Assembly: GCF_988242995.1 (NCBI RefSeq)
Contig: NZ_OZ547043.1
Direction: 5' to 3' (one strand)
DNA: 64,000 nt
Positions 27,370-42,233 of this stretch are shown here, in pieces (the stretch's first letter is position 1; every line of letters starts with the position of its first letter). The notes beneath the pieces were generated by a model that searched no databases, was not told the origin of the DNA, and was given only the letters and a program-made list of their open reading frames with translations. The translations under genes were made by a program, and so were the position numbers.

Positions 27370-28389
27370 TTACCTGAAAGCAACAGTAGCCATAGCTAAC
27401 GTCGTGTCGAGCATTCTGTTAGCAAAGCCCCATTCGTTATCGCACCAGACCAACGTTTTGATCAGGTGTGCGCCACTGACCCGGGTTTGGGTGCCATCGA
27501 CAATGGCACTGTGCGGATCGTGGTTAAAATCTACAGAGACCAACGGCAATTCCGTATAGTCAACTATACCATGAAATGCACCTTGTGCTGCTTTTTGCAG
27601 CAACAGGTTGACTTCATTGGCTTTTACAGGTTTCTTCACCGTCACGCTTAAATCGATTGCCGTCACATTTATGGTTGGCACACGTACCGCAATCGCTTCA
27701 AAGCGATCGTTAAATTGCGGAAAAAATCGTGTGATACCGGCGGCCAGTTTAGTATCGACCGGAATGATCGACTGGCTGGCTGCCCGGGTGCGACGCAGGT
27801 CAGGATGGTATGCATCAATAACCTGTTGATCGTGCATGGCGGAGTGAATTGTGGTCACAGTGCCGGACTCAATACCGTACGCATCATCTAACAATTTGAT
27901 GACGGGAATTATGCAATTCGTGGTACAGGAAGCGTTAGAAACGATGCGGTGTTCCGCACGAAGTTGATCCTGATTGACGCCGTAAACAACGGTCGCGTCG
28001 AGATCGTTACTGCCAGGATGTGAAAAGAGCACTTTTTTGGCCCCGGCGGCAATATGCGCTTCGCCATGCTCGCGGGAGCCATATACGCCGGTGCAGTCGA
28101 GGACTACATCAACGCCAAGTTCACGCCAGGGGAGCGATTGCAGTGAATGTTCATGCAATACACGGATGGCGTCATCACCAACAAAAAGTTGATCGCGTTC
28201 CTGTCGTACTTCCCATGCAAAACGGCCATGGCTGGTGTCATATTTCAACAAATGCGCCATGCCCGCAGCATCCGCCAGTTCGTTGATTGCCACCACGGTA
28301 ATTTCCGCCCGGCGTCTGGATTCATACAAAGCACGAACCACATTACGCCCGATGCGACCGAAGCCATTTATCGCTACGCGTACGGTCAT
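27370..28389 (-). CDS. epd: D-erythrose-4-phosphate dehydrogenase, 339 aa
   Basis: [24 protein letters not shown]...; GAPDH family; the track ORF carries a 28-codon upstream extension. Confidence 0.95.
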
Positions 28390-28511
28390 AGATCTCCTGC
28401 AAGGTTTTCCCTGAGCAAATTTGCCAGACAGAGTAATCCAGCAAATCGTTCGGGGAAACCTTACCTGTCGCAAACTGCGACTGATTGGTTAATTGTCGAA
28501 CATTTAATCGA

Positions 28512-28525
28512 CTGAAACGCTTCAG
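28512..28525. promoter_or_regulatory. Cra(FruR)-like operator half-palindrome in the epd / ECF-operon divergent control region
   Basis: CTGAAACGCTTCAG resembles the TGAAACGTTTCA-type Cra consensus, about 125 bp upstream of the epd start. Confidence 0.3.
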
Positions 28526-28760
28526 CTAGGATAAGCGAAACGTGGAATAAAAGGAATGATTGTCCAGTCAAAGAAGACAATTATCTGACTTACGTCACGT
28601 TTTCAGCCCCGCCCCTGTGGAATTTATTCCACTTTGCAGAATCACGAATAAGCGTAGCAAAATCTTTTCGTTGTGCCGTCACAAACCCTGACTTATATCA
28701 GAATATGACTGATGCAGCGTCGATATTATCCGCAATACGTCCGAGTTTCGGAGTACTCCA

Positions 28761-29192
28761 ATGATGACATTGCCCTACCCATATTCTTCCTCCGCACGTT
28801 TTTACGCGCTGCGCCTGCTCCCCGGGCAGGAAGTTCTCTCCCAATTACGCGCCTTCGCGCAGCAACAACAACTTCACGCCGCGTGGATTGCAGGTTGTAC
28901 CGGCAGTCTGACTGACGTCGCCTTACGCTATGCCGGGCAAGAAAACACTGCCCTGCTAAGCGGTAAGTTCGAAGTCATCGCATTGAACGGCACGCTGGAA
29001 CAGAGTGGTGAACATCTTCATCTCTGCGTTTCCGATCCACACGGCACGATGCTTGGCGGTCATATGATGCCCGGCTGTACCGTGCGGACCACGCTTGAAC
29101 TGGTGATCGGCTGCCTTGAGGAACTGGCGTTTAGCCGCCAGCCTTGCGCGCTTTCTGGTTACGACGAGTTGCATATTTCCCCCGTTAACTAA
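28761..29192 (+). CDS. PPC/DUF296 domain protein, 143 aa, first gene of the ECF operon
   Basis: GGAG 8-11 nt upstream of the ATG; ...HLHLCVSDPHGTMLGGHMMPGCTVRTTLELVI resembles the PPC (PF03479-type) fold. Confidence 0.65.
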   Translation: MMTLPYPYSSSARFYALRLLPGQEVLSQLRAFAQQQQLHAAWIAGCTGSLTDVALRYAGQENTALLSGKFEVIALNGTLEQSGEHLHLCVSDPHGTMLGGHMMPGCTVRTTLELVIGCLEELAFSRQPCALSGYDELHISPVN

Positions 29193-29214
29193 CTATTTTC
29201 AGAGAGGTTTTCTT

Positions 29215-29793
29215 ATGGCGCGTCGCCACTTTTCCAGTCAGGCGCTGGTGTTAATCGTTATATCTATCGCCATCAATATGATCGGCGGGCAACTGGCCAG
29301 CATGGTCAAATTACCTATATTTCTCGACTCCGTCGGCACACTTATTAGCGCGGTACTGCTTGGTCCGGTGATCGGGATGCTGACCGGCTTACTGACCAAT
29401 TTACTCTGGGGATTGCTGACCGACCCGATCGCCGCCGCATTTGCGCCCGTCGCGATGGTCATCGGCCTGGTCACCGGTTGGCTGGCGCGAGCGGGTTGGT
29501 TCCGCACCCTGCCAAAAGTCGTTGTTAGCGGCGTGATTATTACGCTTGCGGTAACGGTCGTCGCTGTACCGCTGCGTACTGCGCTGTTCGGCGGCGTGAC
29601 AGGAAGCGGAGCCGATTTGTTCGTTGCCTGGATGCACTCGATGGGGCAAAACCTGGTGGAGTCGGTGGCGATTACGGTGATAGGCGCGAACCTGGTCGAT
29701 AAAATTCTCACAGCGGTGATTGTCTGGCTTTTACTGCGTCAGCTGCCGATTCGCACCACGCGCCATTTCCCGGCAATGGCTGCCGTGCGCTAA
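29215..29793 (+). CDS. ECF transporter substrate-capture (S) component, 192 aa, substrate unknown
   Basis: AGAGAGG Shine-Dalgarno before the ATG; small polytopic protein with LPIFLDSVGTLISAVLLGPVIGMLTGLL, the loop motif typical of S components. Confidence 0.65.
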   Translation: MARRHFSSQALVLIVISIAINMIGGQLASMVKLPIFLDSVGTLISAVLLGPVIGMLTGLLTNLLWGLLTDPIAAAFAPVAMVIGLVTGWLARAGWFRTLPKVVVSGVIITLAVTVVAVPLRTALFGGVTGSGADLFVAWMHSMGQNLVESVAITVIGANLVDKILTAVIVWLLLRQLPIRTTRHFPAMAAVR

Positions 29794-30501
29794 ATGCATC
29801 CGTTTACATCCTTAACGCTGTGGGCGCTGGCGGCCTGCACCACGCTTATCCTGCCCACACAGACAATATTGCCAGTCTATAGCGCGGCGACCTTTTTCTG
29901 CCTTATTGCGCTAAAGGCCACGCGGCGGCGGGCAAAATATGTCGTCTGGCTGATGTTCTCGCTGGGGGCTGGACTGTGGTTGGTACACGGTGGCTGGCTG
30001 ACAGAATGGCTAAGCGGCACGCCACGCTCGCCAGAACGGTGGACGCATGCTATTACGCTCTGGTTGCGGATTCTGGCGATTGTTTCAACCTCGCAGTTGT
30101 GGATGCAGTACGTCCCAGTGCAACGTTTTATCCGCGCTTTGTTTGCTTCTCACCTGCCGCCGGGCGTCGCTTATCTGTTCGCCGGGCCGTTGTTGGTCGT
30201 TGAGCAGTTAAAACGGCAATTAGCGATTATTCATGAAGCGCAGCGCGCCCGCGGCGTGCCGCTGGATGAGGGCTGGTATCAGCGTTTACGTGCTATGCCC
30301 GCGCTAATTATTCCGCTAACACACAATGCGCTAAACGATCTGGCTATCCGTGGTGCGGCGCTGGATATGCGGGCATTTCGAATCAACAATAGGCGCACTA
30401 CGTTATGGGCACCAGCCGATAGCACCCTACAACGCGTAGCACGTTACACCATGATCTTGCTGATGCTGGCAGAATTCGGAGCGTGGATATGGTTACGTTA
30501 G
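29794..30501 (+). CDS. ECF transporter transmembrane (T) component, EcfT/CbiQ family, 235 aa
   Basis: ATG directly abuts the S-component stop (TAAATG); polytopic; ARG and IRG coupling-helix motifs. Confidence 0.65.
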   Translation: MHPFTSLTLWALAACTTLILPTQTILPVYSAATFFCLIALKATRRRAKYVVWLMFSLGAGLWLVHGGWLTEWLSGTPRSPERWTHAITLWLRILAIVSTSQLWMQYVPVQRFIRALFASHLPPGVAYLFAGPLLVVEQLKRQLAIIHEAQRARGVPLDEGWYQRLRAMPALIIPLTHNALNDLAIRGAALDMRAFRINNRRTTLWAPADSTLQRVARYTMILLMLAEFGAWIWLR

Positions 30502-31166
30502 AACAGTTCCGCTATTGCCCGACACACTCAACGCATCCTCCGTTCTGTTATGACTTTCACTATGTCAAACCGGGGATGGTCGCCATCTTTGGTGACAACG
30601 GCAGTGGCAAAAGTACGCTGGCGCAGCTGATGGCGGGCTGGTATCCGGACTTTCTACCAGGAGAGATAACCGGCACGGGGACGCTTCTCGGTACGCCCAT
30701 TGGGCGTCTCCCGCTTAATGAACAATCCGCCACCATCCAGCTCGTCCAGCAATCGCCCTATTTGCAGCTCTCCGGCTGTACCTTTAGCGTGGAAGAAGAA
30801 GTTGCCTTTGGGCCAGAAAATCTGTGTCTTGCTGAAAAAGAGATTATGGCGCGGATTGACGCCGCCCTGGCCCTGACCGAGTGCCAGCCGTTGCGCCATC
30901 GTCACCCGGCAACACTCTCCGGTGGAGAGACACAGCGCGTGGTCATCGCCTGCGCCATCGCGATGCAGCCAAAACTCTTAATTCTTGATGAAGCCTTTAG
31001 CCGCCTGACGCCGCAGGCCAGCGAAATGCTGTTGCAGCGCTTACAACACTGGGCGTCTGAACGTGGTTCGCTGATTATTCTTTTTGAACGTCATCGCACA
31101 CCTTTCCTGAACTACTGCCAGCAAGCGTGGCTATTGCAAAACGGAGCGCTCCAGCCACTATGTTAA
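30489..31166 (+). CDS. ECF transporter ATPase component A, ABC-type, about 225 aa
   Basis: Walker A GDNGSGKST, signature LSGGE, Walker B LLILDEA; start overlaps the T gene (a GTG at 30483 is an alternative start). Confidence 0.75.
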   Translation: MVTLEQFRYCPTHSTHPPFCYDFHYVKPGMVAIFGDNGSGKSTLAQLMAGWYPDFLPGEITGTGTLLGTPIGRLPLNEQSATIQLVQQSPYLQLSGCTFSVEEEVAFGPENLCLAEKEIMARIDAALALTECQPLRHRHPATLSGGETQRVVIACAIAMQPKLLILDEAFSRLTPQASEMLLQRLQHWASERGSLIILFERHRTPFLNYCQQAWLLQNGALQPLC

Positions 31167-31837
31167 CGTTAAATCAGATAACTTATCGCTGGCCTGGCGC
31201 GGCAACGGATTGTCTTTGCGACATTTCTCTGCAACTCAAACAAGGTGAATGGTTGGCGCTGACCGGCGACAATGGCGCGGGAAAATCGACGCTGTTACGA
31301 GTAATGGCAGGTCTTCTTACGCCCACAACCGGTACGGTTATGCTGCAACAACAGGCGATGAAAAACCTGAAAAACCGCCAACGTGCAGCAAAGATTGGCG
31401 TACTGTTTCAGGAAGCGGAAAACCAGCTTTTTCACAGCACCGTCGCCGACGAGATCGCATTTGGTTTGAAACTGCAAAAATGCCCGGCGGATGAAATCAC
31501 TCAACGTACCAATGCTGCCCTGCAATGCTGTCAGTTAGCAGACACTGCCAGCGCGCATCCGCTGGATCTGCATAGTGCGCAGCGACGGATGGTCGCCGTC
31601 GCCTGCCTGGAAGCACTCTCTCCGCCGCTATTGCTGCTGGACGAGCCGAGTCGGGATTTTGACGAAAATTGGTTGAGCGTGTTTGAACGCTGGCTGGAAA
31701 AGTGCCGCCAGCGAGGCACGAGCGTCGTAGCAATCAGTCATGACGCCGCATTTACCCGGCGTCATTTCTCTCGTGTGGTGCGACTGGAAGATGGTGTAAT
31801 CAGGAACGTTAATCCACCAGACGATATTCACCCGTAG
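31160..31837 (+). CDS. ECF transporter ATPase component A', ABC-type, 225 aa
   Basis: Walker A GDNGAGKST, Walker B LLLLDEP, H-loop SHD, signature degenerate (LHSAQ); ATG overlaps the component A stop (ATGTTAA). Confidence 0.75.
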   Translation: MLTLNQITYRWPGAATDCLCDISLQLKQGEWLALTGDNGAGKSTLLRVMAGLLTPTTGTVMLQQQAMKNLKNRQRAAKIGVLFQEAENQLFHSTVADEIAFGLKLQKCPADEITQRTNAALQCCQLADTASAHPLDLHSAQRRMVAVACLEALSPPLLLLDEPSRDFDENWLSVFERWLEKCRQRGTSVVAISHDAAFTRRHFSRVVRLEDGVIRNVNPPDDIHP

Positions 31838-32522
31838 CGGTCATCATTAAGGTCAAATTTGCAGGCAGACTCTCTTCCAGCACCCGGCGAACATTCGGCC
31901 CGTCGGTACGGTCATAAAAGTCTTCTGCGTCTGCCAGCGATAACCCTCCCGCCAGCTTTCGCCCCACCAGTCGTTCCCGCAACGCAGTAGCTGGCGCGTT
32001 GATAAAGATAGAGAAATCACAAAATTGCGCAAGCTGGCACCACTTCTCGTCGTCCAGCAACAACCAGTTTCCTTCGACGATGACGAGTGGTGCGGTAACG
32101 TGCAGCGCATCTTCAACAGGATCATGCTTTTGTCGATCGTACTGCGGCCACGTACAATCCCCTTCCACGACCTGGCGCAGATTTTCCGCCAGTTTCGCAA
32201 CGTCAAATGTCTCTGGTGCGCCTTTGAAGGGGCGCAATTGATGCGCATCCAGCCAGCTATTGTAATGGTGAAAACCATCCATCGGTAGCGTCTGAATAGC
32301 GGGCAGTTCCGGGTCTTGTTGCGCGATATATTCCCAGAAGGTGGTTAGGGTAGATTTACCCGTCCCCGGCGGAGCGCAAAGAAAAACCACCGTACGCCGC
32401 TGCGGATTTACCGTCTGTAAGGCCGCCAACATGTGCAGCAACGGTTTATGTACATTTTCAATCTCTTCGTTCTGGTACTGTGCCTGTATCTTCAGCCCAT
32501 TCACCGTTAATTCAATTTTCAC
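31809..32522 (-). CDS. yggC: P-loop nucleoside/pantothenate-kinase-like protein YggC, 237 aa
   Basis: Walker A APPGTGKST; matches YggC. Confidence 0.85.
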   Translation of the reverse strand: MKIELTVNGLKIQAQYQNEEIENVHKPLLHMLAALQTVNPQRRTVVFLCAPPGTGKSTLTTFWEYIAQQDPELPAIQTLPMDGFHHYNSWLDAHQLRPFKGAPETFDVAKLAENLRQVVEGDCTWPQYDRQKHDPVEDALHVTAPLVIVEGNWLLLDDEKWCQLAQFCDFSIFINAPATALRERLVGRKLAGGLSLADAEDFYDRTDGPNVRRVLEESLPANLTLMMTATGEYRLVD

Positions 32523-33028
32523 GGCGTTAATTCCTTTAAGGTGGTCGTTACTGCCAGCGTCAGCGCCGTTTTGACCATCCCGCTAAAACGCGCCTCTGAC
32601 CAGACGGCGAAATCGGCGAACTTCATCGCTTTCAATGCGTCATAGAGCGTCGCATTGCGGGTTATACTATTGACGTTGCTGATAAAATCCCAGGTCATGT
32701 CATCGGCAAATCCGGGCGTTTCATCCTGTTCGTTCAGGTAATGCCAGAACTGGGAAAAATGCGTGATATCGGCGTACAGCCATTTATCCATTTTCCCCAG
32801 CGCATAAATCAAACGCAGCGCAACATCAATATCGTCAAGCGGGCCGCTTTGGGCGAGTAACGGCTTCACTGCATATTCCACGATCTCTTCATCGTTATCG
32901 ACAAACAGCGACGGCAGAAACTGGCGTATCCCCTGGAGCAAAATGGTATGCGCAGTTTTCATAAATGAAAATAAATTGTCCTGTGCATCCAGTTGCTCAA
33001 GCACATCATCTTCTGTCAGCGTCGCCAT
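32519..33028 (-). CDS. yggD: YggD (MtlR-like / FumE family), 169 aa
   Basis: MATLTEDDVLEQLDAQDNLFSFMKTAHTILLQGIRQF... matches YggD. Confidence 0.85.
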   Translation of the reverse strand: MATLTEDDVLEQLDAQDNLFSFMKTAHTILLQGIRQFLPSLFVDNDEEIVEYAVKPLLAQSGPLDDIDVALRLIYALGKMDKWLYADITHFSQFWHYLNEQDETPGFADDMTWDFISNVNSITRNATLYDALKAMKFADFAVWSEARFSGMVKTALTLAVTTTLKELTP

Positions 33029-33049
33029 TGGTCTTCCGATAGATCACCA

Positions 33050-34015
33050 TCAATGCAGGGAGTCTATTATATTACACGTTTGGTCCGCGCCGCCGATCAG
33101 TAATGTCTGCGTCCGCACCCCATTCGCCGTCTGTTGGATACCGTTCACCAGCTCACCGCCCGTCACGCCCGTAGCGCTAAAGAGGATATCGTTCCCCCTC
33201 ACCAGTTCATCGAGCGAGTACACACGGTTAACGTCAACGCCCATTGCCTTGCAACGCTTGCGCTCCTGCTCTGCAATCTGCCGATTTTCCGTGTAATCCC
33301 CTTTAGCCTGACAAAAGTCAATCAGCTGGGCCTGCATATCCCCGCCTAATGCTTTAACGGCACAGGCAGAAATCACGCCTTCTGGCGCACCGCCGATGGT
33401 GTACATCACATCGTAAGGATTATCCTGCCAGCAGGTCAGCACGCTGGCGGCGACATCGCCATCCGGCAGAGCGAAAACCTTCACGCCCAGCTGTGTTGCT
33501 TCTTCAATCGCGGCACTCAGGCGCGGTTTATCCAGCGTAACCATGCGCAGCTTGTCCAGCGGTTTGCCTAACGCTTTCGCCACGTTGCGCAGGTTGTCCA
33601 CCAGGGGCAAAGACAGATCAATCGCGCCCGCCGCCAGCCGATTAACAACCAGTTTTTTCATATACATATCGGGAGCGTGTAGCAGGCTGCCTCGTGGGGC
33701 GAAGGCCATGACTGCCAGCGCATTGCTCTGTCCCATCGCCACCATCCGCGTACCTTCAATGGGATCAACCGCGATATCGACTTCTGGCCCATCGCCTTTG
33801 CCCACCTCTTCGCCAATCCACAGCATCGGCGCATGGTCAATCTCTCCCTCGCCGATAACCACTCGCCCACGAAAAGCGACGTCGTTTAATGCCTGGCGCA
33901 TCGCGGTGACCGCCAGGCCATCAATTTTATTTTTGTCGCCACATCCGGTTTGCGGCCAGGCAGCCAACGCTGCCTGTTCCGTAACGCGAAATAATGGCCA
34001 CGCCAGGGACATCAT
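33050..34015 (-). CDS. yggF: Fructose-1,6-bisphosphatase class II (GlpX paralog), 321 aa
   Basis: MMSLAWPLFRVTEQAALAAWPQTGCGDKNKIDGLAV... GlpX family. Confidence 0.9.
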   Translation of the reverse strand: MMSLAWPLFRVTEQAALAAWPQTGCGDKNKIDGLAVTAMRQALNDVAFRGRVVIGEGEIDHAPMLWIGEEVGKGDGPEVDIAVDPIEGTRMVAMGQSNALAVMAFAPRGSLLHAPDMYMKKLVVNRLAAGAIDLSLPLVDNLRNVAKALGKPLDKLRMVTLDKPRLSAAIEEATQLGVKVFALPDGDVAASVLTCWQDNPYDVMYTIGGAPEGVISACAVKALGGDMQAQLIDFCQAKGDYTENRQIAEQERKRCKAMGVDVNRVYSLDELVRGNDILFSATGVTGGELVNGIQQTANGVRTQTLLIGGADQTCNIIDSLH

Positions 34016-35289
34016 TGCGCGGCCTCCCCAATATCAACGCCAAATTGCGCCAGCAGATATTTCTCGGCCTGCTCATTCCAGATGCCGTGCGTTTCCTCAA
34101 CCAGCCGCGCCAGCTCTTTAAACAGCGGATCGGTTTTGCCTTTTTCGGCAAAATCGGCAATGGCAGTGAGCGGCATGGTCACGCCGTTATAAATGAGTTT
34201 TTTACCGCCTGGGATATCCGGCAGATTGAGCACGGTTTCTGGCACCGCATCCAGGCCACCAATATGGGTCACCATAAACGACGGCTGTAACTGTCCCGTA
34301 GCGCTAAGGGTAATCGCCTCTTTCATGTCGTCCGTTGAACCGCCGGATGTACCGACGACGTGCGTGCTGTTGTAATGGACGTTGTAGAAATTAAACGGCA
34401 CTTTGAAGTTTTTATCCGTCGGCCCGGCAAAGAAGTTCAGGCAGCCATCTTCCGCCAGTAATTCGTCAGCCATCTCAACGACAGCAGGCACCGCCGCATA
34501 AACAAAAATGTCATCGAACCCGGCATCTCCTGTAAGCGCCCGCAGCATCTGTACCGGATCGCTCATCCCTTTGGTATTCACATACACCAGCTCAATGCCT
34601 TTACTGGCCGCCAGCTCCACCGGCAGCAGCTTCTGTACCTGCGCCAGGCGTTTGTCGTCGATATCGACCACCACCACCCGCGACGGTTGTATGCCGCCGT
34701 TAATGGCGTAATCGATAGCGCCAATGCCCATTGGGCCAGCACACGCCAGCAGTGCAATATTGCCGCCAGGTTTAACGCCCATGCGATGCTCATAAACATA
34801 TTGCGTGGTGTGATAATTGGCATGATAAGCGCCAATAATGCAGCACATAGGCTCTGCCAGCGACGCCGCAGCAAAATAAGAGCCGTGATAGGGTAATACG
34901 CAGCCCAAATTAATGGCGATTTCGGGAATAATCATATAGGTGGCGTTACCGCCAAAATATTCGTAGCTGTAGCCCGCTGAATATCCGCTTGGTAACCCCA
35001 TCGCCGGTTGCAATACAAAACGCTGGCCTTTTTTATATTTGCCAGTGAGATTTTTACCCACTTCGACAATAACCCCGGCACATTCATGCCCGGTAATGAC
35101 CGGATGATTTTCTAAATCGTCGGGTACGCGTTTATGTTCACTACCGAGTAACGCCGCTTTCCAGGTGGATAAACAGACGCTGTCAGAAATTACACTCACC
35201 AGCAGTTCATTATCGGTAATTTCTGGCAGTTCAAATTCGCGCAGACGGACATCCCGCTTGCCATAAATAGCAGCAACTTTGGTTTTCAT
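34012..35289 (-). CDS. yggP: Zinc-dependent sugar-phosphate/polyol dehydrogenase (MDR family), 425 aa, intact
   Basis: GHECAG zinc-binding motif; matches YggP; overlaps the yggF start by 4 nt. Confidence 0.85.
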   Translation of the reverse strand: MKTKVAAIYGKRDVRLREFELPEITDNELLVSVISDSVCLSTWKAALLGSEHKRVPDDLENHPVITGHECAGVIVEVGKNLTGKYKKGQRFVLQPAMGLPSGYSAGYSYEYFGGNATYMIIPEIAINLGCVLPYHGSYFAAASLAEPMCCIIGAYHANYHTTQYVYEHRMGVKPGGNIALLACAGPMGIGAIDYAINGGIQPSRVVVVDIDDKRLAQVQKLLPVELAASKGIELVYVNTKGMSDPVQMLRALTGDAGFDDIFVYAAVPAVVEMADELLAEDGCLNFFAGPTDKNFKVPFNFYNVHYNSTHVVGTSGGSTDDMKEAITLSATGQLQPSFMVTHIGGLDAVPETVLNLPDIPGGKKLIYNGVTMPLTAIADFAEKGKTDPLFKELARLVEETHGIWNEQAEKYLLAQFGVDIGEAAQ

Positions 35290-35303
35290 TTTTACCTCTG
35301 TAA

Positions 35304-36692
35304 TCAGTGTTTATGTTCTGCGGTTAATTGATTAAATAAAGTGTCGAGTTTTGGATCGCCAATATAGTTATTAATCAATATCAGTGATTTATCCGTCACA
35401 CGTTTCACGCGCCCTTCCAGACTGGCATGAGTAACAACGATATCCGCATCCGCAGGCACGTTTTCTATCGCGTAATGTTTTACTTCAATTGCCAGCCCCG
35501 CTTTTTCCAGACGTTTACGGAAGGTGGTTGCGCCCATCGCGCTGGAGCCCATCCCCGCATCGCAAACAAAAGCGATACGCTTAACCCGGCTTAACGAGAA
35601 TGCACCCTCTTGTTTCATCGCCTTAACCGCATTGGCTGACTGAGCAAACTCATCTTCGTTCTCCGTTTCCACCGTTTTTTCCATCTTCAGTATCAGCGAA
35701 GTGATAGCAAAGGACACCAGGGTACCTACCGTAACACCAGCAATTGTCGCCAGGAATGAGCCTTTCGGCGTCAGCGCCAGGTAAGCAAAGATAGACCCCG
35801 GACTTGGGCCAGCCACCAGACCACCGTCCAGTAAGTTAAACATCCAGGTGCCAGACATACCGCCCGCAATCATGGCAATAATGGTCAGCGGCTTCATCAG
35901 CACATATGGGAAATACAGTTCGTGGATACCGCCGAGGAAGTGAATAATCATCGCCCCGGGCGCAGAACGTTTACTCATCCCTTTACCAAACAAGGTAAAC
36001 GCCAGCAGCAGCCCTAATCCAGGCCCAGGATTGGACGCCACCATAAAGAAGATAGATTTACCGTTAACCGAAGCCTGTTGCATTCCCAGCGGATAATAGA
36101 CGCCCTGATCGATCGCATTATTGAGGAAAAGCACTTTCGCCGGTTCATTGATGACTGACAGCAGAGGCAGATAACCCGCATGTACCAGCGCCTCGATACA
36201 CTCTTTGACGAAAGTATTGGCAATTAACACCGCCGGGCCGATAACTTCAAAACCCAGCAGACAAAGGAGCATCCCCGCGATACCTAATGAGAAGTTATTG
36301 ATAACCATCTCAAAACCGGCAGGTATGCGTTTTTCCAGCGCCTTGTCGATATATTTAATCACCAGACCACCGAGCGGCCCCATAATCATCGAGCCAAGGA
36401 ACATCGGGATTTCAGCGCCGACGATCACACCAATCGTACCAATTCCGCCCATGACCGCGCCGCGTTTGCCGCCGATCAGATGACCACCAGTAGAACCAAT
36501 CATCACGGGTAATAAATAGGTAATCATCGGACCGACAATTTTGGCGAAATGTTCATTCGGCAGCCAACCGGTGGGAATAAATAACGCAGTTATAAAGCCC
36601 CAGGCAATAAAAGCACCGATATTGGGGATGACCATTGCCGTCAAAAAACCCCCAAAAGCCTGGACCTTTGCACGAGCAGACTTGTTTTCCAT
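35304..36692 (-). CDS. cmtA: PTS mannitol-family EIICB component, 462 aa
   Basis: MENKSARAKVQAFGGFLTAMVIPNIGAFIAWGF... matches CmtA. Confidence 0.9.
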   Translation of the reverse strand: MENKSARAKVQAFGGFLTAMVIPNIGAFIAWGFITALFIPTGWLPNEHFAKIVGPMITYLLPVMIGSTGGHLIGGKRGAVMGGIGTIGVIVGAEIPMFLGSMIMGPLGGLVIKYIDKALEKRIPAGFEMVINNFSLGIAGMLLCLLGFEVIGPAVLIANTFVKECIEALVHAGYLPLLSVINEPAKVLFLNNAIDQGVYYPLGMQQASVNGKSIFFMVASNPGPGLGLLLAFTLFGKGMSKRSAPGAMIIHFLGGIHELYFPYVLMKPLTIIAMIAGGMSGTWMFNLLDGGLVAGPSPGSIFAYLALTPKGSFLATIAGVTVGTLVSFAITSLILKMEKTVETENEDEFAQSANAVKAMKQEGAFSLSRVKRIAFVCDAGMGSSAMGATTFRKRLEKAGLAIEVKHYAIENVPADADIVVTHASLEGRVKRVTDKSLILINNYIGDPKLDTLFNQLTAEHKH

Positions 36693-36719
36693 AATATTAT
36701 CCTGTAGAGGAGAGAGTCA

Positions 36720-37163
36720 TTATCCGCGGCTGATAATGTCCGCTAATTGTTTTTCTGATGATGCTGTTAAGAGTTGTTCGAGTATTTCTTCTTCGCTCAG
36801 TAATTCACTTAACGCCTGAATAGCGCCAATGTGCGAATCGGCATCGGCAGCAGAAAGGCCGATGAGTAATTTTATCGGTTCGTCATTCCCCGGAAAATAA
36901 ACGCCTTGTTTAAGTAACGTTAAAGACATCCCGGTTTTAAGCGCCCCACATTCCGGTCGAGCATGAGGCATTGCCACGCCTGGTGCGAGAATATAGTAAG
37001 GGCCATTACTCATGGTGGAATATTTAATAGCCTGAATGTAATTCTCGCTGATATAGTTTTTATCCAGCAATGATGCCATCGAGAAATCGATAGCTTCCTG
37101 CCAATCTTTTGCTGAATGTATAACTGAGATTGATGATTCTGGAAAATAATCAATAAGCCGCAT
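36720..37163 (-). CDS. cmtB: PTS mannitol-family EIIA component, 147 aa
   Basis: MRLIDYFPESSISVIHSAKDWQEAIDFSMASLL... matches CmtB. Confidence 0.9.
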   Translation of the reverse strand: MRLIDYFPESSISVIHSAKDWQEAIDFSMASLLDKNYISENYIQAIKYSTMSNGPYYILAPGVAMPHARPECGALKTGMSLTLLKQGVYFPGNDEPIKLLIGLSAADADSHIGAIQALSELLSEEEILEQLLTASSEKQLADIISRG

Positions 37164-37540
37164 AAATTATCCTTATTTTATTTTTAGGGTACCGTCCGGC
37201 GGTAAAAATAAAATACTCGTGCGGTTTAATGAAAGCAATTGGGTACGCGAGAAGAAAAACCCCATGAGCCAAAATAATAAAACTTTAAATAACAACAACA
37301 TGAAATCAATAATTACAAAGTCAACTTTGTATTTGTTATGTTTATCACAAAATCAACATTTTGTTTGTTATTGTATTTTTGATGCATATCGCCATTTATT
37401 TATTGAATGTCCGAAAACATACTTTTTTTAATGCAATGTTTTTTCGCTATACCCCTTTATAGATTCTGAATTCTCACCTGTCGGCTATTTTCTCCTCACC
37501 TCATGTGACATATTCCCCACTTTACTCAAGGAAGATTCAT

Positions 37541-38449
37541 ATGAAAGCACCTGTTTCAATAACCTCATTTCGCCCACAAAAATCTATTGCTATCGTCATT
37601 GGCGTGCTTGCCGTGGTTGTGCTGCCATTTCTCTCGTATTACACCGTTAATGAAGGTGAACGCGGCATTTTGCTGCGCTACGGAAAAATCGTAAAAGTTG
37701 CCGAGCCGGGTCTGGGTTTTAAAATCCCTTTTATGGAAAGCGTGGAGAAAATTTCCACGCGTAATCAGGCTGTGGTTTATCAGGGATTACAGGCCTACAG
37801 CCGCGACCAGCAACCGGCACAAATGACAGTATCAGTCAGCTTCCACATTAAACCTTCAGAAGCTGGCGCAGTTTATACAACCTACAACACCATTGAATCT
37901 TTAAAAGAGCGTCTGATCGTCCGCCAGCTGCCAACCCAACTGGAGAACGTTTTCGGGCAATATACAGCCATCAGCGCGGTACAGGATCGTACAAAACTGG
38001 TTCAGGATCTGCAAAATGCAATGCGTAAAGCCGTTGTTGGCCCGGTGGTGATTGATGGTGTTCAGATTGAAAATATTGATTTTTCTGACGCTTATGAAAA
38101 ATCGATTGAAGATCGAATGAAAGCAGAAGTCGCCATTGCCACACGTAAGCAAAATCTGGAAACAGAGAAAATCCAGGCGCAAATAGCGGTAACTCAGGCC
38201 CAGGCAGAAGCAGACAGTAAACTGGCGGCAGCCAAAGCAGAAGCTGAGACTATTCGCGTAAGAGGCGCGGCAGAGGCTGAAACTATTCGTTTAAAAAGTG
38301 CGGCTGAAGCAGAAGCGATCCGCCTGCGCGGTGAAGCTCTGCGGGATAATCCCGGACTTGTTGCCCTCACCACTGCTGAGCGTTGGGACGGTAAGCTACC
38401 CGATACCATGATCCCCGGCAGTACAGTTCCGTTTATCTCTACTAAGTAA
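37541..38449 (+). CDS. SPFH/band-7 (prohibitin/HflC-like) membrane protein with an Ala/Glu-rich repeat tail, 302 aa
   Basis: AAGGAAG Shine-Dalgarno before the ATG; N-terminal TM helix; SPFH core (YTVNEGERGILLRYGK...); C-terminal AEAETIR-type repeats. Confidence 0.7.
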   Translation: MKAPVSITSFRPQKSIAIVIGVLAVVVLPFLSYYTVNEGERGILLRYGKIVKVAEPGLGFKIPFMESVEKISTRNQAVVYQGLQAYSRDQQPAQMTVSVSFHIKPSEAGAVYTTYNTIESLKERLIVRQLPTQLENVFGQYTAISAVQDRTKLVQDLQNAMRKAVVGPVVIDGVQIENIDFSDAYEKSIEDRMKAEVAIATRKQNLETEKIQAQIAVTQAQAEADSKLAAAKAEAETIRVRGAAEAETIRLKSAAEAEAIRLRGEALRDNPGLVALTTAERWDGKLPDTMIPGSTVPFISTK

Positions 38450-39155
38450 TAAATATCCTCCGGCATAGCCGGAGGTTTTTCAAATGCGCCTATAAGGCTC
38501 TCTTACCAGCCGCGCCCTAACAGGCGCACACGATCTGACATTTGCATCCAACTTCGTTACTTACGGCCCGTAAACGGGCTGCCCGGATAGGGAATCGATA
38601 ACTGCTCTCCCATTTTATCCTCTTCAAGCTGGTGCTTTATGTAATCCTGTATCTTCGCCGTGTTCTTACCCACTGTATCGACGTAGTACCCTCTGCACCA
38701 GAACTCCCTGTTCCTGTATTTGAATTTCAAATCACCAAACTGCTCGTAAAGCATCAGACTGCTTTTCCCTTTCAGATATCCCATAAACCCGGATACGCTC
38801 ATTTTGGGCGGGATCTCCACAAGCATATGGATATGATCTGCACAGCATTCAGCTTCCAGAATCCGTACGCTTTTCCACTCACACAGCTTTCTCAAAATAC
38901 TGCCTATTGCTCTACGCTTCTCTCTGTAGAACACCTGTCTTCGGTATTTTGGCGCAAAAACTATGTGATATTTACAGTTCCATCGGGTGTGCGCTAAGCT
39001 CTTTTCGTTCCCCATTGGGACCCCCTTTTGATTTCTTGTTTGACACTTGCAGTTGCCAGACCGCAAGGTGTTTTAACAAATCAAAAGGGGTTTTAATAAC
39101 TGGCTCAAAGCTGAAAGCTTTCCGGAACCCCCAGCCTAGCTGGGGGTTTTCTGTG
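38450..39155 (-). mobile_element. IS200 insertion sequence (IS200/IS605 family), about 0.7 kb, boundaries approximate
   Basis: Complete Y1/HUH transposase gene; GC-rich subterminal hairpins at both ends (cccccagcctagctggggg 39128-39146 and cctccggcatagccggagg 38456-38474). Confidence 0.6.
38557..39015 (-). CDS. tnpA: IS200 transposase TnpA (Y1 HUH transposase), 152 aa
   Basis: MGNEKSLAHTRWNCKYHIVFAPKYRRQVFY...HIHMLVEIPP... matches IS200 TnpA. Confidence 0.9.
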   Translation of the reverse strand: MGNEKSLAHTRWNCKYHIVFAPKYRRQVFYREKRRAIGSILRKLCEWKSVRILEAECCADHIHMLVEIPPKMSVSGFMGYLKGKSSLMLYEQFGDLKFKYRNREFWCRGYYVDTVGKNTAKIQDYIKHQLEEDKMGEQLSIPYPGSPFTGRK

Positions 39156-39158
39156 CAC

Positions 39159-39183
39159 AAAAAAAGGGCCGCTTTCGCGGCCC
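39159..39183 (-). terminator. Intrinsic terminator downstream of tktA
   Basis: gggccgcgaaagcggccc hairpin followed by a 7-T run on the minus strand. Confidence 0.75.
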
Positions 39184-39205
39184 TTCTCACAAAGCATCTT
39201 ACCGA

Positions 39206-41197
39206 TTACAGCAGTTCTTTTGCTTTCGCAACAACGTTGTCAACGGTGAAGCCGAACTCTTCAAACAGCAGTTCTGCCGGGGCAGACTCACCGAAGGTGG
39301 TCATGCCGACGATAGCACCGTTCAGGCCAACATACTTGTACCAGTAGTCAGCAATACCCGCTTCTACCGCAACGCGTGCAGTAACCGCTTTCGGCAGTAC
39401 GGATTCACGGTAAGCCGCATCCTGCTTGTCGAATGCATCGGTAGACGGCATGGAAACCACGCGCGCCTTCACGCCTTCGGCAGTCAGTTTTTCGTAGGCA
39501 GCGACAGCCAGTTCAACTTCAGAACCGGTAGCGATGAAGATCAGTTCCGGCTGGCCGGCACAGTCTTTCAGCACATAACCACCGCGCGCGATGTTTGCCA
39601 GCTGCTCTTCAGTACGCTCCTGCTGCGCCAGGTTCTGACGGGAGAGGATAAGCGCAGTCGGGCCGTCCTGACGTTCAACGCCGTATTTCCATGCCACTGC
39701 AGATTCAACCTGGTCACATGGACGCCATGTAGACATGTTCGGGGTCACGCGCAGAGAAGCAACCTGCTCTACCGGCTGGTGAGTCGGGCCATCTTCGCCC
39801 AGACCGATGGAGTCGTGGGTGTAAACCATCACCTGACGCTGTTTCATCAGCGCAGCCATACGTACGGCGTTACGTGCGTATTCCACGAACATCAGGAAGG
39901 TGGAGGTGTACGGCAGGAAGCCACCGTGCAGGGAGATACCGTTAGCAATCGCGGTCATACCGAACTCGCGAACACCGTAGTGGATGTAGTTACCCGCAGC
40001 ATCTTCGTTGATTGCTTTAGAACCAGACCACAGGGTCAGGTTAGACGGTGCCAGGTCAGCAGAGCCGCCGAGGAATTCCGGCAACAGCGGACCGAACGCT
40101 TCAATCGCATTCTGAGACGCTTTACGGCTGGCGATTTTCGCCGGGTTAGCCTGCAGTTTAGCGATGAACTCTTTCGCTTTAGCGTCGAAGTCAGACGGCA
40201 TTTCGCCTTTCATACGGCGGGTAAATTCAGCGGCTTCCTGCGGATAAGCTTTCGCGTAAGCTGCGAATTTCTCGTTCCATGCGGATTCTTTCGCCTGGCC
40301 TGCTTCTTTCGCATCCCACTGAGCATAGATTTCAGACGGGATTTCGAACGGTGCATATTTCCAGCCCAGCTGTTCGCGGGTCAGGGCGATTTCAGCGTCG
40401 CCCAGCGGCGCACCGTGGGAGTCGTGCGTACCGGCTTTGTTCGGTGAACCGAAACCGATGATGGTTTTGCACATCAGCAGGGACGGTTTGTCAGTCACTG
40501 CGCGCGCTTCTTCTACTGCGCGTTTGATGGATGCCGCGTCATGACCGTCGATGCCGCGAATAACGTGCCAGCCGTAAGCTTCGAAACGCATTGCGGTGTC
40601 GTCGGTGAACCAGCCTTCAACGTGACCATCGATAGAGATACCGTTGTCATCGTAGAACGCAATCAGTTTACCCAGCTTCAGCGTACCCGCCAGAGAGCAA
40701 ACTTCGTGGGAGATGCCTTCCATCATGCAGCCGTCGCCCATGAAGGCGTAGGTGTAGTGGTCGACGATGTCGTGGCCCGGACGGTTAAACTGCGCCGCCA
40801 GCGTTTTTTCTGCAATCGCCATACCGACTGCGTTGGCAATACCCTGACCCAGCGGACCAGTAGTGGTTTCCACACCAGCGGTGTAACCCACTTCCGGGTG
40901 ACCCGGAGTTTTAGAGTGCAGCTGACGGAAGTTTTTCAGTTCTTCCATCGGCAGATCGTAACCGGTGAGGTGCAGCAGGCTGTAGATCAGCATGGAGCCG
41001 TGGCCGTTGGACAGCACGAAGCGGTCACGGTCAGCCCAGGACGGATTCTGCGGGTTGTGTTTCAGGAAATCACGCCACAGGACTTCGGCAATGTCAGCCA
41101 TACCCATAGGGGCACCCGGGTGACCGGATTTGGCTTTCTGTACTGCGTCCATGCTCAGCGCACGAATAGCATTGGCAAGCTCTTTACGTGAGGACAT
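39206..41197 (-). CDS. tktA: Transketolase 1, 663 aa
   Basis: [41 protein letters not shown]... matches TktA. Confidence 0.95.
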
Positions 41198-41474
41198 TTT
41201 GACTCCAGATCGGATGATGAAGGGCACGCCCTTAACGACTTGACGACAGCGCGTTTTGGGCTACGCCGGAAAATTTGCCAACAATTTACCGCAAGCCGCG
41301 CGTCATGTACATGGAACATCCTTTTGCCGCTTCAGAAATCTCTGGATCATGCTCGCATGTTGCGCAATCTGCTCGCCCGTCCGCTGCGCTTTTCCTTATA
41401 CTGAGACTAAGCGTCGATTCACCTGCAAACGGCGCATTTTTAGAATAATCCTGACCTTGTGCGGAAGAGAAAAC

Positions 41475-42233
41475 ATGAAAATTCGCGCCTTATTGGTAGC
41501 AATGAGCGTGGCAACGGTACTGACCGGTTGCCAGAATATGGACTCCAACGGACTGCTCTCATCAGGAGCGGAAGCTTTTCAGGCTTACAGTTTGAGTGAT
41601 GCGCAGGTGAAAACCCTGAGCGATCAGGCATGTCAGGAGATGGACAGCAAGGCGACGATTGCGCCAGCCAATAGCGAATACGCTAAACGTCTGACAACTA
41701 TTGCCAATGCGCTAGGCAACAATATCAACGGTCAGCCGGTGAATTACAAAGTGTATATGGCGAAGGATGTGAACGCCTTTGCAATGGCTAACGGTTGTAT
41801 CCGCGTCTATAGCGGGCTGATGGATATGATGACGGATAACGAAGTCGAAGCGGTGATCGGTCACGAGATGGGGCACGTGGCGTTAGGCCATGTGAAGAAA
41901 GGGATGCAGGTGGCACTTGGTACAAATGCCGTGCGAGTAGCTGCGGCCTCTGCGGGCGGGATTGTCGGCAGTTTATCTCAATCACAACTCGGTGATCTGG
42001 GCGAGAAATTAGTTAATTCGCAATTCTCCCAGCGCCAGGAAGCAGAAGCCGATGATTATTCTTACGATCTTCTGAGCCAACGCGGCATCAGCCCGGCAGG
42101 TCTTGCCACCAGCTTTGAAAAACTGGCGAAGCTGGAAGAAGGCCGTCAAAGCTCAATGTTTGACGACCATCCTGCATCCGCCGAACGCGCCCAGCATATT
42201 CGCGATCGTATGAGCGCGGATGGAGTTAAGTAA
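41475..42233 (+). CDS. loiP: M48-family metalloprotease lipoprotein LoiP (YggG), 252 aa
   Basis: Lipobox LTGC; HEMGH zinc motif; the track ORF carries a 73-codon upstream extension. Confidence 0.9.
   Translation: MKIRALLVAMSVATVLTGCQNMDSNGLLSSGAEAFQAYSLSDAQVKTLSDQACQEMDSKATIAPANSEYAKRLTTIANALGNNINGQPVNYKVYMAKDVNAFAMANGCIRVYSGLMDMMTDNEVEAVIGHEMGHVALGHVKKGMQVALGTNAVRVAAASAGGIVGSLSQSQLGDLGEKLVNSQFSQRQEAEADDYSYDLLSQRGISPAGLATSFEKLAKLEEGRQSSMFDDHPASAERAQHIRDRMSADGVK

Follow-up and report, generated by a model that had tools for sequence, protein, structure and literature searches.

The cmt-ygg genes of Escherichia coli raise the question of what a mannitol-type transporter is doing beside a dehydrogenase and a fructose-1,6-bisphosphatase, and of where the unit that they form comes to an end. 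The cmt genes were named cryptic because no growth on mannitol was attributed to the cluster, and the literature searched gives no defined substrate for it.

Extent and conservation of the cluster

Within the window, by which we mean the whole analysed stretch of 64,000 nucleotides, six intact and co-directional genes occupy positions 31809-37163 of the minus strand, and the RefSeq annotation holds the identical set of six CDS. In the order of reading these are cmtB (36720-37163, 147 aa), encoding a PTS enzyme IIA of the mannitol/fructose (EIIA_2) type; cmtA (35304-36692, 462 aa), a PTS enzyme IICB of the mannitol subfamily; yggP (34012-35289, 425 aa), a zinc-type medium-chain dehydrogenase of the SorE (ketose-1-phosphate reductase) subfamily; yggF (33050-34015, 321 aa), a class II (GlpX-type) fructose-1,6-bisphosphatase paralog; yggD, annotated as fumE (32519-33028, 169 aa), an MtlR-family protein; and yggC (31809-32522, 237 aa), a P-loop kinase of the PRK/Udk/PanK fold (COG1072). 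The gaps measure 27 nt between cmtB and cmtA, 14 nt between cmtA and yggP and 21 nt between yggF and yggD, while the two remaining junctions are 4-nt overlaps, the ATG of yggF overlapping the stop codon of yggP (ATGA) and the GTG start of yggC that of yggD (GTGA). A Shine-Dalgarno-like motif precedes each of the six genes, and no terminator-like hairpin was found in any intergenic gap from cmtB to yggC.

A sequence-only reading of this DNA had placed cmtB, cmtA, yggP and yggF on the minus strand at exactly the coordinates of the reading frames found, and its gene identities are borne out by the domain assignments and the RefSeq CDS, as are the continuation into yggD and yggC in the same direction and the description of the cluster as intact and tightly packed. 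Its spacing of 14-26 bp with a 4-nt overlap is right in the lower figure and the overlap, but the upper one should be 27 nt. It also ended the cluster at yggF (33050); the four genes stand, but the end is better set at yggC (31809), since in bacteria at large no neighbour of YggP is more constant than the YggC-type kinase, and the functional unit probably extends that far.

The six reading frames are genuine genes and not chance ORFs. Of 5426 complete E. coli genomes, the region is detected in 5423 and carried to at least 80% by 5387, and its DNA is 100% identical to that of E. coli H1827/12. Purifying selection on the cluster is strong, pN/pS against K-12 being 0.046 (about 0.05) when pooled over cmtB to yggD, and the main 90%-identity cluster of the YggP protein has 13,293 member sequences. 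K-12 MG1655 has identical gene lengths and spacings, including a yggP of 425 aa; the full length pointed out earlier for this gene is thus true though not distinctive, and since intactness and a 425-aa yggP are both the species norm, they say nothing specific to the window. Differences from K-12 comprise three amino acids in yggF, a divergent allele in the 3' third of yggC (a mosaic 3' end) and both flanks.

The encoded proteins and the systems they resemble

CmtB matches Pfam PF00359 at 107.8 bits and NCBIfam NF007358 at 315.8 bits (cutoff 192), and aligns with the EIIA domain of MtlA at 29% identity, PH motif included, its putative phosphorylated histidine being His67 in an AMPH motif. CmtA has the EIIC and IIB domains of the mtlA subfamily (TIGR00851 at 480.5 bits, cutoff 468.4; NF011663 at 593.5, cutoff 589), with a GIHE motif at 255-258 and Cys377 as the EIIB cysteine, and is 52% identical to the EIICB part of MtlA (E = 2e-162). 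The only domain found in YggD is MtlR (PF05068, 180.2 bits); the protein is 36% identical to K-12 MtlR and matches the solved structure 3c8g (E = 2e-109). The cluster is accordingly like mtlA-mtlD-mtlR of E. coli in the type of transporter, in the possession of an MtlR-family protein and in the order of transporter, dehydrogenase and MtlR-like gene, but its EIIA is a separate polypeptide, its dehydrogenase is of SorE type and not an MtlD homolog, and it has two additional genes, for the P-loop kinase and the class II bisphosphatase. As an MtlR homolog with no recognisable DNA-binding domain, YggD would probably regulate the pathway through protein contacts rather than as a classical repressor. 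Against a regulatory role, PMC8464067 cites YggD as "verified as fumarase E" and as showing no DNA binding in ChIP-exo.

YggP has the Pfam domains ADH_N and ADH_zinc_N, in agreement with the zinc-dependent polyol-phosphate dehydrogenase proposed earlier, and the assignment can be sharpened. It shares 43% full-length identity (E = 3e-126) with the dehydrogenase of an L. plantarum sor-type operon and shows no similarity to MtlD; judged by its sequence, it is a SorE-type MDR dehydrogenase of the sorbose-1-phosphate reductase family, unrelated to MtlD. SorE itself converts L-sorbose-1-phosphate and D-sorbitol-6-phosphate into each other (PMC12817954). Conserved residues of YggP are Cys39, His68, Glu69, Glu146 and Asp209, together with a GPMG motif at 185-188; Asp209, invariant in the homolog alignment, suggests a preference for NAD, as is more usual for enzymes working oxidatively. 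With the L-sorbose (sor) operons of Klebsiella, E. coli and Lactobacillus the cluster thus shares the full-length architecture of this enzyme, its C-terminal extension and all its catalytic residues, but those operons combine a mannose-family four-component PTS with an SDR sorbitol-6-phosphate dehydrogenase, whereas the cmt-ygg genes specify a mannitol-family PTS, no SDR and an extra kinase.

YggF scores 586.6 bits against the glpX equivalog TIGR00330 (cutoff 259.3), is 58% identical to K-12 GlpX and has the PDB relatives 1ni9 and 3d1r (about E = 1e-112). Fructose-1,6-bisphosphatase activity of K-12 YggF was measured by Brown 2009, as cited in PMC8719807, and deletion of yggF lowers growth in fermentative glycerol use (PMC8719807). 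YggC scores 520.4 bits against NF006742 (cutoff 402) and has the Walker A motif PPGTGKST at 51-58.

Gene neighbourhoods and the proposed pathway

Gene context leads us to a tentative order of reactions, one that we hold to be possible though less than probable in its specifics. CmtB and CmtA would take up the substrate with phosphorylation at C1, giving a polyol-1-phosphate, which YggP, NAD-dependent and acting on the carbon adjoining the phosphate, would oxidise to a ketose-1-phosphate; YggC would then phosphorylate this once more, to a ketose-1,6-bisphosphate that may be fructose-1,6-bisphosphate. This could be cleaved by a class II aldolase, in E. coli FbaA, the gene for which lies about 3 kb downstream, or alternatively YggF may remove the C1 phosphate to yield a hexose-6-phosphate for biosynthesis, the role of glpX in the glpFKX operon. 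Two likenesses are proposed on this basis, namely to fruBKA (fructose PTS and 1-phosphofructokinase), where the 1-phosphate made by the PTS needs a second kinase to reach the 1,6-bisphosphate, and to the catabolic glpFKX operon, where a substrate entering at or below fructose-1,6-bisphosphate needs the bisphosphatase for hexose-6-phosphate. YggC would then be the equivalent of 1-phosphofructokinase; unlike in fruBKA, however, it has the PRK/Udk/PanK and not the pfkB fold, and the dehydrogenase step comes before the kinase. The overall scheme of polyol PTS, MDR dehydrogenase, kinase and class II aldolase is also that of the galactitol (gat) operon, in which the PTS delivers galactitol-1-phosphate, the MDR dehydrogenase GatD makes the ketose phosphate, and a kinase and the class II aldolase GatY follow, and genes for a GatY-like aldolase and a pfkB kinase flank Firmicute versions of the cluster. 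The gat PTS is however of the galactitol and not the mannitol type, GatD is distant (an annotated galactitol-1-phosphate 5-dehydrogenase on a Listeria plasmid is 24% identical to YggP by tblastn), and the E. coli cmt-ygg cluster itself includes no aldolase gene.

Neighbours of YggP were counted in 29 species loci with a homolog of 60% identity or more. All but one of these (28), from Enterobacterales through Vibrionaceae to Firmicutes, have a YggC-type kinase on the same strand at a distance of up to 4 kb; next in frequency come EIIA and EIICB (25 each), MtlR (21), GlpX (11) and PHP (8). The kinases beside YggP in Hafnia, Serratia, Vibrio, Aliivibrio and Lachnospiraceae are 42-54% identical to YggC with an invariant P-loop, and by sequence they qualify as its true orthologs. 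Hafnia and Serratia fonticola have the identical six genes in identical order at other chromosomal sites, and the six-gene unit moves as a block. The order is EIIA-EIICB-YggP-MtlR-kinase-PHP in Vibrionaceae and EIIA-kinase-EIICB-YggP, with a PRD regulator, in Lachnospiraceae and Alkalibacterium. The phosphatase may be of GlpX type, of PHP type or absent, and since it is missing from the Rahnella and Firmicutes loci, it is not essential to the pathway.

The relationship of YggP to SorE invites a reductive route, in which CmtBA would import a ketose and phosphorylate it at C1, YggP would reduce the ketose-1-phosphate to a hexitol-6-phosphate, and a dehydrogenase encoded elsewhere, such as SrlD, would convert this to fructose-6-phosphate. 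The PTS for mannitol and for fructose are members of a single superfamily, and C1 is where fructose-type systems place the phosphate, which suits such a route; several sources label YggP homologs "L-sorbose 1-phosphate reductase", and in the tier of 55-59% identity 19 of 51 loci have an SDR gene on the same strand at a distance of up to 4 kb, in keeping with the logic of SorE and SorD. We nevertheless regard the route as quite improbable, since an SDR-type hexitol-6-phosphate dehydrogenase occurs in none of the 29 closer loci, since the route does not need the kinase that nearly all of them have, and since the putative NAD preference points to oxidation. Furthermore, sorE-deleted E. coli is unable to use sorbose even though yggP belongs to the core genes of the species; chromosomal yggP is thus no substitute for sorE under those conditions (PMC12817954).

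A bisphosphate intermediate of the oxidative order is suggested by three gene contexts. The Anaerostipes loci consist only of kinase, YggP and class II aldolase with no adjacent PTS; in Hespellia L033 the aldolase comes directly after YggP; and more distant homologs have a pfkB-family kinase directly upstream, at the expected place of YggC, the related Lachnospiraceae pfkB gene scoring best against models of the 1-phosphofructokinase type. In all, class II bisphosphate aldolase genes lie immediately 3' of YggP in three loci. The locus of Hespellia L033 has a pfkB-type kinase in addition to the YggC-type one, and the two may therefore not be equivalent. In the Anaerostipes loci, YggC is equally plausible as the first kinase on a free polyol, which speaks against the proposed kinase order. 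More generally, YggC might phosphorylate a free cytoplasmic polyol or sugar, supplied by non-PTS import or dephosphorylation, YggP oxidising the monophosphate into central metabolism with no bisphosphate, and YggF being a gluconeogenic isozyme co-located by chance. Such a role would suit the solved structure closest to YggC, 3c8u (E = 1e-21), which bears the deposited name "Fructokinase", and the lack of GlpX in most non-enterobacterial versions; an independent earlier comparative-genomics prediction of a sugar/polyol kinase (PMC3223725) speaks for it and for our main reading alike. It is unlikely, however, because the kinase sits inside a PTS operon in 25 of the 29 loci, in Firmicutes between the EIIA and EIICB genes, where a kinase for the free substrate would repeat the phosphorylation done by the PTS, and the aldolase and pfkB contexts likewise disagree with it.

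Promoter region and the case for a single unit

Upstream of cmtB (37164-37504, minus strand), only the 78 bp next to the start codon (37164-37241) are common to K-12, where the blastn match ends; from 37242 upward a "prohibitin-type" allele, present in 1816 of 5426 genomes, replaces the K-12-type spacer found in 3583. Beyond -78 the promoter of this strain therefore differs from that studied in K-12, and CRP activation of the cmtB promoter has been shown for the K-12 promoter only (PMC3105977; PMC12412646). A consensus scan predicts a CRP-like site, TGTGATAAACATAACA (37334-37349, minus strand), which begins 186 nt upstream of the cmtB ATG and is a pattern match agreeing at 9/10 half-site positions; the unrelated K-12 allele has an 8/10 CRP-like site at equal distance. 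Inside yggP, CTGGCGGCAATATTGCA (34753-34769, minus strand), occurring once in the window, is an exact copy of the sigma-54 site IS35 mapped by ChIP in K-12 (PMC4591121). This site and the assignment of a CRP SELEX hit to yggF (PMC3105977) could leave room for internal transcription starts.

In the one promoter screen found in the literature searched, of 198 Biolog compounds on PcmtA-gfp, the best inducers were nucleosides, not polyols (PMC12412646). The want of polyol-specific induction speaks against the pathway and leaves standing the earlier statement that the cluster has no defined substrate.

Possible internal starts and induction by nucleosides would also suit a mere historical juxtaposition of independent genes in separate transcription units, with a silent second mannitol PTS (cmtBA), a spare bisphosphatase (yggF), a fumarase (fumE) and a nucleoside/nucleotide-type kinase (yggC), as the present gene names imply and as the activity and deletion phenotype of YggF alone and the fumarase report on YggD would allow. 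This we consider very improbable, since the same genes keep together at unrelated chromosomal sites and in different phyla, and since two junctions are stop/start overlaps. In addition, the domain search found no fumarase-family domain in YggD, "nucleoside/nucleotide kinase" is the name of a fold family and not a demonstrated activity of YggC, and the uridine effect on PcmtA is not specific because 13 other sugar-transporter promoters respond too (PMC12412646).

The layout of the genes suggests their co-transcription, and the likeliest reading is that they constitute one CRP-dependent operon for PTS uptake and breakdown of a polyol or related sugar, a reading which together with the oxidative pathway we hold at about even odds. 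The locus is an ordinary core E. coli gene cluster, already annotated and known, and there is good reason to believe that all six of its genes make up one functional carbohydrate unit.

Gene order, spacing and conservation in E. coli

The six genes run on the minus strand in the order cmtB (36720-37163, 147 aa), cmtA (35304-36692, 462 aa), yggP (34012-35289, 425 aa), yggF (33050-34015, 321 aa), yggD (32519-33028, 169 aa; annotated as fumE) and yggC (31809-32522, 237 aa). The first four open reading frames were found exactly where the sequence-only reading had placed an intact and tightly packed four-gene region, with the orientation it gave, and yggD and yggC run on likewise. From cmtB to yggC the gaps between genes are 27, 14, -4 (ATGA), 21 and -4 (GTGA) nt, so that of the 14-26 bp spacing that had been claimed the lower bound and the 4-nt overlap stand, while the upper figure should be 27, and a Shine-Dalgarno-like motif lies 5' of every start codon in all six genes. 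The gene labels first proposed are furthermore in agreement with domain searches, which return EIIA_2 for CmtB, EIIC and IIB of the mannitol subfamily for CmtA, ADH_N and ADH_zinc_N for YggP and the glpX equivalog for YggF, in addition to an MtlR domain in YggD and a PanK/Udk-like P-loop kinase domain in YggC. Consensus scans for promoters and terminators in the window and K-12 clusters gave matches below shuffle expectation and none in the intergenic gaps, and they only show that obvious internal terminators are absent from the cluster.

The DNA of the region is 100% identical to that of E. coli H1827/12, in which RefSeq annotates the same genes, and of 5426 complete E. coli genomes 5423 match the four-gene region, 5387 of them over at least 80% of its length. 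Gene lengths and spacings in K-12 MG1655 are exactly those of the window. YggP is indeed full length, but since the K-12 protein and the dominant protein cluster likewise have 425 aa, the notion that this is unusual was rejected. From cmtB to yggD the differences from K-12 are mostly synonymous, with a pooled pN/pS of 0.046, and the least constrained of these five genes is cmtB (0.18). The cluster is cryptic merely in the sense that its function is unassigned, and its genes are not decaying; as had been stated, it has no defined substrate, and none came up in literature searches on yggP, yggC, yggF, cmtA and cmtB. The original finding is correct and ordinary, the locus being an already known part of the core genome and in its normal condition.

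Identity of at least 99% over 33050-37163 is seen in just 16 of the 5423 matching genomes, the next-best listed matches being at about 98%, and cmtA and cmtB are 95.8% and 95.9% identical to K-12, with yggP, yggF, yggD and tktA at 97.3-98.0%. Either the strain represents a sparsely sampled lineage, or the region 33050-37163 has a distinct recombination history.

Strain-specific flanks and regulatory sites

Homology to K-12 upstream of cmtB stops at 37241, 78 bp before the ATG, and the tktA-cmtB spacer, 234 bp in K-12, is here replaced by 1963 bp (37242-39204). It contains a divergent prohibitin/SPFH gene on the plus strand (37505/37541-38449) and an IS200C transposase gene on the minus strand (38557-39015/39066). 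An Rfam scan of 28000-41500 returned nothing inside the cluster, its sole match being the Hfq-binding sRNA STnc490 in the IS200 element (39025-39148, minus strand; 146.4 bits, gathering score 56). It sits at the 5' end of the IS200C copy, which separates the prohibitin gene from tktA. Since the spacer is replaced, the cmtB promoter studied in K-12 differs from that of the window beyond -78. Among complete E. coli genomes 3583 have the K-12-type spacer and 1816 the prohibitin type, and about one third of E. coli strains, the window's included, thus carry a cmtB promoter region unlike that of K-12. The published cmtB promoter work and regulation data, including the observation that CRP binds and activates the cmtB promoter (PMC3105977; PMC12412646), all concern the K-12 allele. 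In both unrelated alleles a CRP-like site begins 186 nt before the cmtB ATG, its half-site pair scoring 9/10 in the window (37334-37349, minus strand) and 8/10 at the K-12 locus (L011, about 11502-11517), and this equal distance could be due to convergence or coincidence. Within yggP a sigma-54 site has been mapped in K-12 (site IS35; PMC4591121), and the identical 17-mer is found at 34753-34769 (minus strand) inside the window's yggP, in the same orientation as the genes, from where the motif could in principle drive yggF-yggD-yggC.

At the other end of the cluster, the last approximately 240 nt of yggC (31809-32050) are 48-67% identical to K-12, as against about 98% for the first approximately 480 nt, and 30 of the 32 amino-acid differences between the two YggC proteins fall after residue 160. 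This mosaic 3' end adjoins a five-gene plus-strand island (28600-31837) that is absent from K-12 and encodes a PPC-domain protein followed by ECF transporter S and T components and two ABC ATPases. Its final ABC gene (ending at 31837) runs convergently into yggC and overlaps the 3' end of that gene (at 31809) by 29 nt. The island is found together with the window's yggC allele in 3318 of the 5426 complete genomes, and for the epd-yggC region of E. coli W it had been recorded as a "cobalt transport system" (PMC3032704). In one E. coli genome (NZ_CP180597.1) the sequence bordering the island towards epd (window 28600-28779) has a 100% match beneath a feature annotated as cmtA, which suggests a deletion or rearrangement removing yggC to yggP in that strain.

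Likeness to the mannitol and sorbose systems

CmtA belongs to the mannitol subfamily by TIGR00851 (480.5, cutoff 468.4) and NF011663 (593.5, cutoff 589), although both scores barely exceed the cutoffs, and Pfam finds EIIC and PTS_IIB domains. It is 52% identical to the EIICB part of K-12 MtlA and keeps both the GIHE motif (residues 255-258) and the EIIB cysteine, Cys377 within CDAGMGSS, which aligns with the corresponding motif CDAGMGSSAMGA of MtlA. CmtB scores 315.8 against 192 with the EIIA_2 model NF007358, and in the alignment with the EIIA domain of MtlA (29% identity) its His67 (AMPH) falls on the VPH motif. The mannitol name of the two proteins is one given on similarity alone. In a screen of PcmtA-gfp with 198 Biolog compounds the strongest inducers were nucleosides and not polyols, but uridine also induces 13 further sugar-transporter promoters (PMC12412646) and its effect on PcmtA is therefore unspecific. 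A nucleoside-related cluster, as might be read from uridine induction and from the "nucleoside/nucleotide kinase" name of YggC, was accordingly set aside, the name being a fold label. Deletion of cmtA raises the tobramycin MIC and overexpression of cmtAB increases the uptake of aminoglycosides, to which CmtA has recently been linked (PMC12412646).

YggD consists over its whole length of an MtlR domain (PF05068, 180.2 against 25.2), matches the solved structure 3c8g at E = 2e-109 and is 36% identical to K-12 MtlR. It is cited in PMC8464067 as "verified as fumarase E", but a Pfam scan of the protein returns MtlR only and no fumarase or lyase domain; DNA binding by YggD was not seen by ChIP-exo (PMC8464067). 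A putative role in connection with the cluster is supported by its lying in synteny with YggP at 21 of the 29 loci whose YggP homolog is at least 60% identical. YggF is a glpX equivalog (TIGR00330, 586.6 bits against 259.3) with 58% identity to K-12 GlpX over 319 residues and matches to PDB GlpX entries at about E = 1e-112. It differs at three residues from K-12 YggF, which is credited with FBPase activity (Brown 2009, as cited in PMC8719807) and the deletion of which lowers growth in fermentative glycerol use (PMC8719807). YggC gives an equivalog-level match to NF006742 (520.4 against 402), has a Walker A motif PPGTGKST at residues 51-58, and shares DGFH and EGNW motifs that are invariant across eight orthologs. 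Its nearest PDB entry was deposited as a fructokinase, and a prediction from 2011 has YggC (COG1072, PRK09270) as a "sugar/polyol kinase", the experiment being given as "in progress" (PMC3223725).

YggP has the MDR fold (ADH_N and ADH_zinc_N), and the catalytic zinc ligands Cys39, His68, Glu69 and Glu146, as well as the GPMG motif and Asp209, are invariant in the family alignment. BLASTP detects no similarity to K-12 MtlD (best E = 0.45), and a sequence search against solved structures gives remote MDR matches only, the best at E = 5e-9 and to the N-terminal part only. Its relation is instead to the sorbose systems: YggP is 43% identical end to end (E = 3e-126) to a zinc-type dehydrogenase from an L. 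plantarum plasmid, which served as a stand-in for SorE. The operon around this dehydrogenase gene also encodes a regulator of SorC type, an SDR and the IIA/B/C/D components of a mannose-family PTS, as is classic for sorbose operons. A reductive sorbose-like route is a less probable rival for the direction of the YggP reaction, and SorE itself converts L-sorbose-1-phosphate to D-sorbitol-6-phosphate (PMC12817954), which means that it acts on the carbon adjoining the phosphorylated C1. However, sorbose partners, i.e. a mannose-family PTS and an SDR sorbitol-6-phosphate dehydrogenase, are found neither in the window nor at any of the 29 loci with at least 60% YggP identity, which places YggP in the SorE enzyme family but outside the sorbose system. 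Furthermore, sorE-deleted E. coli cannot use sorbose despite its core yggP (PMC12817954), an indirect negative for YggP activity on L-sorbose-1-phosphate.

The cluster is thus a composite, with a transporter and a regulator of mtl type, a dehydrogenase of sor type and, in addition, a kinase and an FBPase. That it simply duplicates mtlADR was rejected, since YggP is not homologous to MtlD and an MtlD-family dehydrogenase is missing from the cluster, and from the sor systems it differs in lacking their PTS and SDR partners.

Gene neighbourhood in other bacteria and a possible route

YggP relatives are encoded in at least 593 species-representative genomes, and the protein is very conserved, homologs in Vibrio and Lachnospiraceae being 63-68% identical. 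We scored 80 species loci by tblastn, counting genes on the same strand no more than 4 kb from the YggP homolog, in two tiers with homologs of at least 60% identity (29 loci) or below (51 loci). A YggC-type kinase accompanies YggP at 28/29 loci of the upper tier and 1/51 of the lower, and the sole upper-tier locus without it (L026) ends just upstream of the YggP gene. These kinases are true orthologs, 42-54% identical and with an invariant P-loop. EIIA (25/29 and 2/51), EIICB (25/29 and 3/51), PF05068 MtlR (21/29 and 0/51), GlpX (11/29 and 0/51) and the PHP protein (8/29 and 0/51) follow the same division, and the reverse holds for a pfkB-family kinase (1/29 and 7/51, six of the latter directly upstream) and an SDR (0/29 and 19/51). 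In Hafnia and Serratia fonticola the six genes keep their order but lie elsewhere on the chromosome. In Aliivibrio and Vibrio the arrangement is EIIA-EIICB-YggP-MtlR-kinase, after which comes a PHP-domain protein instead of GlpX (NCBIfam PRK09248, with histidinol phosphatases as farther matches), Lachnospiraceae and Alkalibacterium show EIIA-kinase-EIICB-YggP together with a regulator of PRD type, and one Agathobaculum locus, in the lower tier, has EIICBA, a PRD regulator, pfkB and a YggP-like protein. An unlikely rival explanation is that these are unrelated neighbouring genes rather than one unit. The cmt-ygg genes are one conserved, selected and tightly coupled set, and that all six form a single carbohydrate unit is in our view highly probable.

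In a Hespellia metagenome-assembled genome (L033, 5399-13048) a YggP that is 63% identical to that of E. coli is preceded by EIIA, YggC-type kinase and EIICB and followed by a class II aldolase, after which come a pfkB kinase and another YggP-like protein (52%). The locus looks like two parallel kinase and dehydrogenase modules separated by a single aldolase gene. In E. coli (window 39206-41197), close relatives and several Vibrio (L006, L025, L032) EIIA is closely preceded by a transketolase gene, which in these Vibrio follows a transaldolase gene. The adjacency of transketolase and EIIA may reflect chance, old synteny or a link to pentose or heptose phosphates.

In the reaction order that we propose, CmtBA would import a polyol and phosphorylate it at C1, YggP would oxidize C2 to give a ketose-1-phosphate, and YggC would add a second phosphate, giving a ketose bisphosphate to be split by a class II aldolase, for which the E. 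coli candidate is FbaA, encoded about 3 kb downstream of the cluster. Alternatively, by analogy with GlpX in glpFKX, YggF may make the 6-phosphate from the bisphosphate for biosynthesis. This specific order, from CmtBA through YggP and YggC to aldolase or YggF, is tentative and may well be wrong. It is favoured by the kinase being the constant partner of YggP, by the pfkB-family kinase that stands in for YggC in related loci, by the bisphosphate aldolase that comes after YggP in three loci, and by the consideration that the 1-phosphate product is a dead end unless a further phosphorylation or cleavage by an aldolase follows. Counting against it are the failure of polyols to induce PcmtA in the Biolog screen and the occurrence of both kinase types at the Hespellia locus. 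A further, less probable rival is that YggC is a kinase of the free substrate. At two Anaerostipes loci (L037, L038) tblastn finds only kinase, YggP and class II aldolase, the full annotation of L037 shows no adjacent transporter, and Anaerostipes hominis has a DeoR regulator, kinase and YggP and, after a gap of about 200 nt, a calcineurin-like phosphoesterase; with the PTS not nearby, the kinase might equally well perform the first step there, which likewise counts against the proposed order.

On a bolder reading, the invariant YggC-YggP pair, mostly in a mannitol-type PTS operon, would mark a widespread uncharacterised route from polyol-1-phosphate via ketose-1-phosphate to ketose-1,6-bisphosphate, a generalization that we consider unlikely on present evidence. 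YggC would then serve sugar catabolism as a ketose-phosphate kinase of PRK/Udk/PanK fold, non-homologous enzymes would take the phosphatase step according to lineage (GlpX-type, PHP-type, perhaps calcineurin-like), and the natural substrate would be a polyol beyond those that E. coli is known to use. For the window itself this is of little consequence, as it carries a core, annotated locus in its normal state, and the question of substrate and pathway concerns E. coli at large. The cmtBA-yggPFDC genes nonetheless rank among the better-conserved E. coli loci that have no assigned physiological role, and the comparison across species narrows that question to a few enzyme assays.
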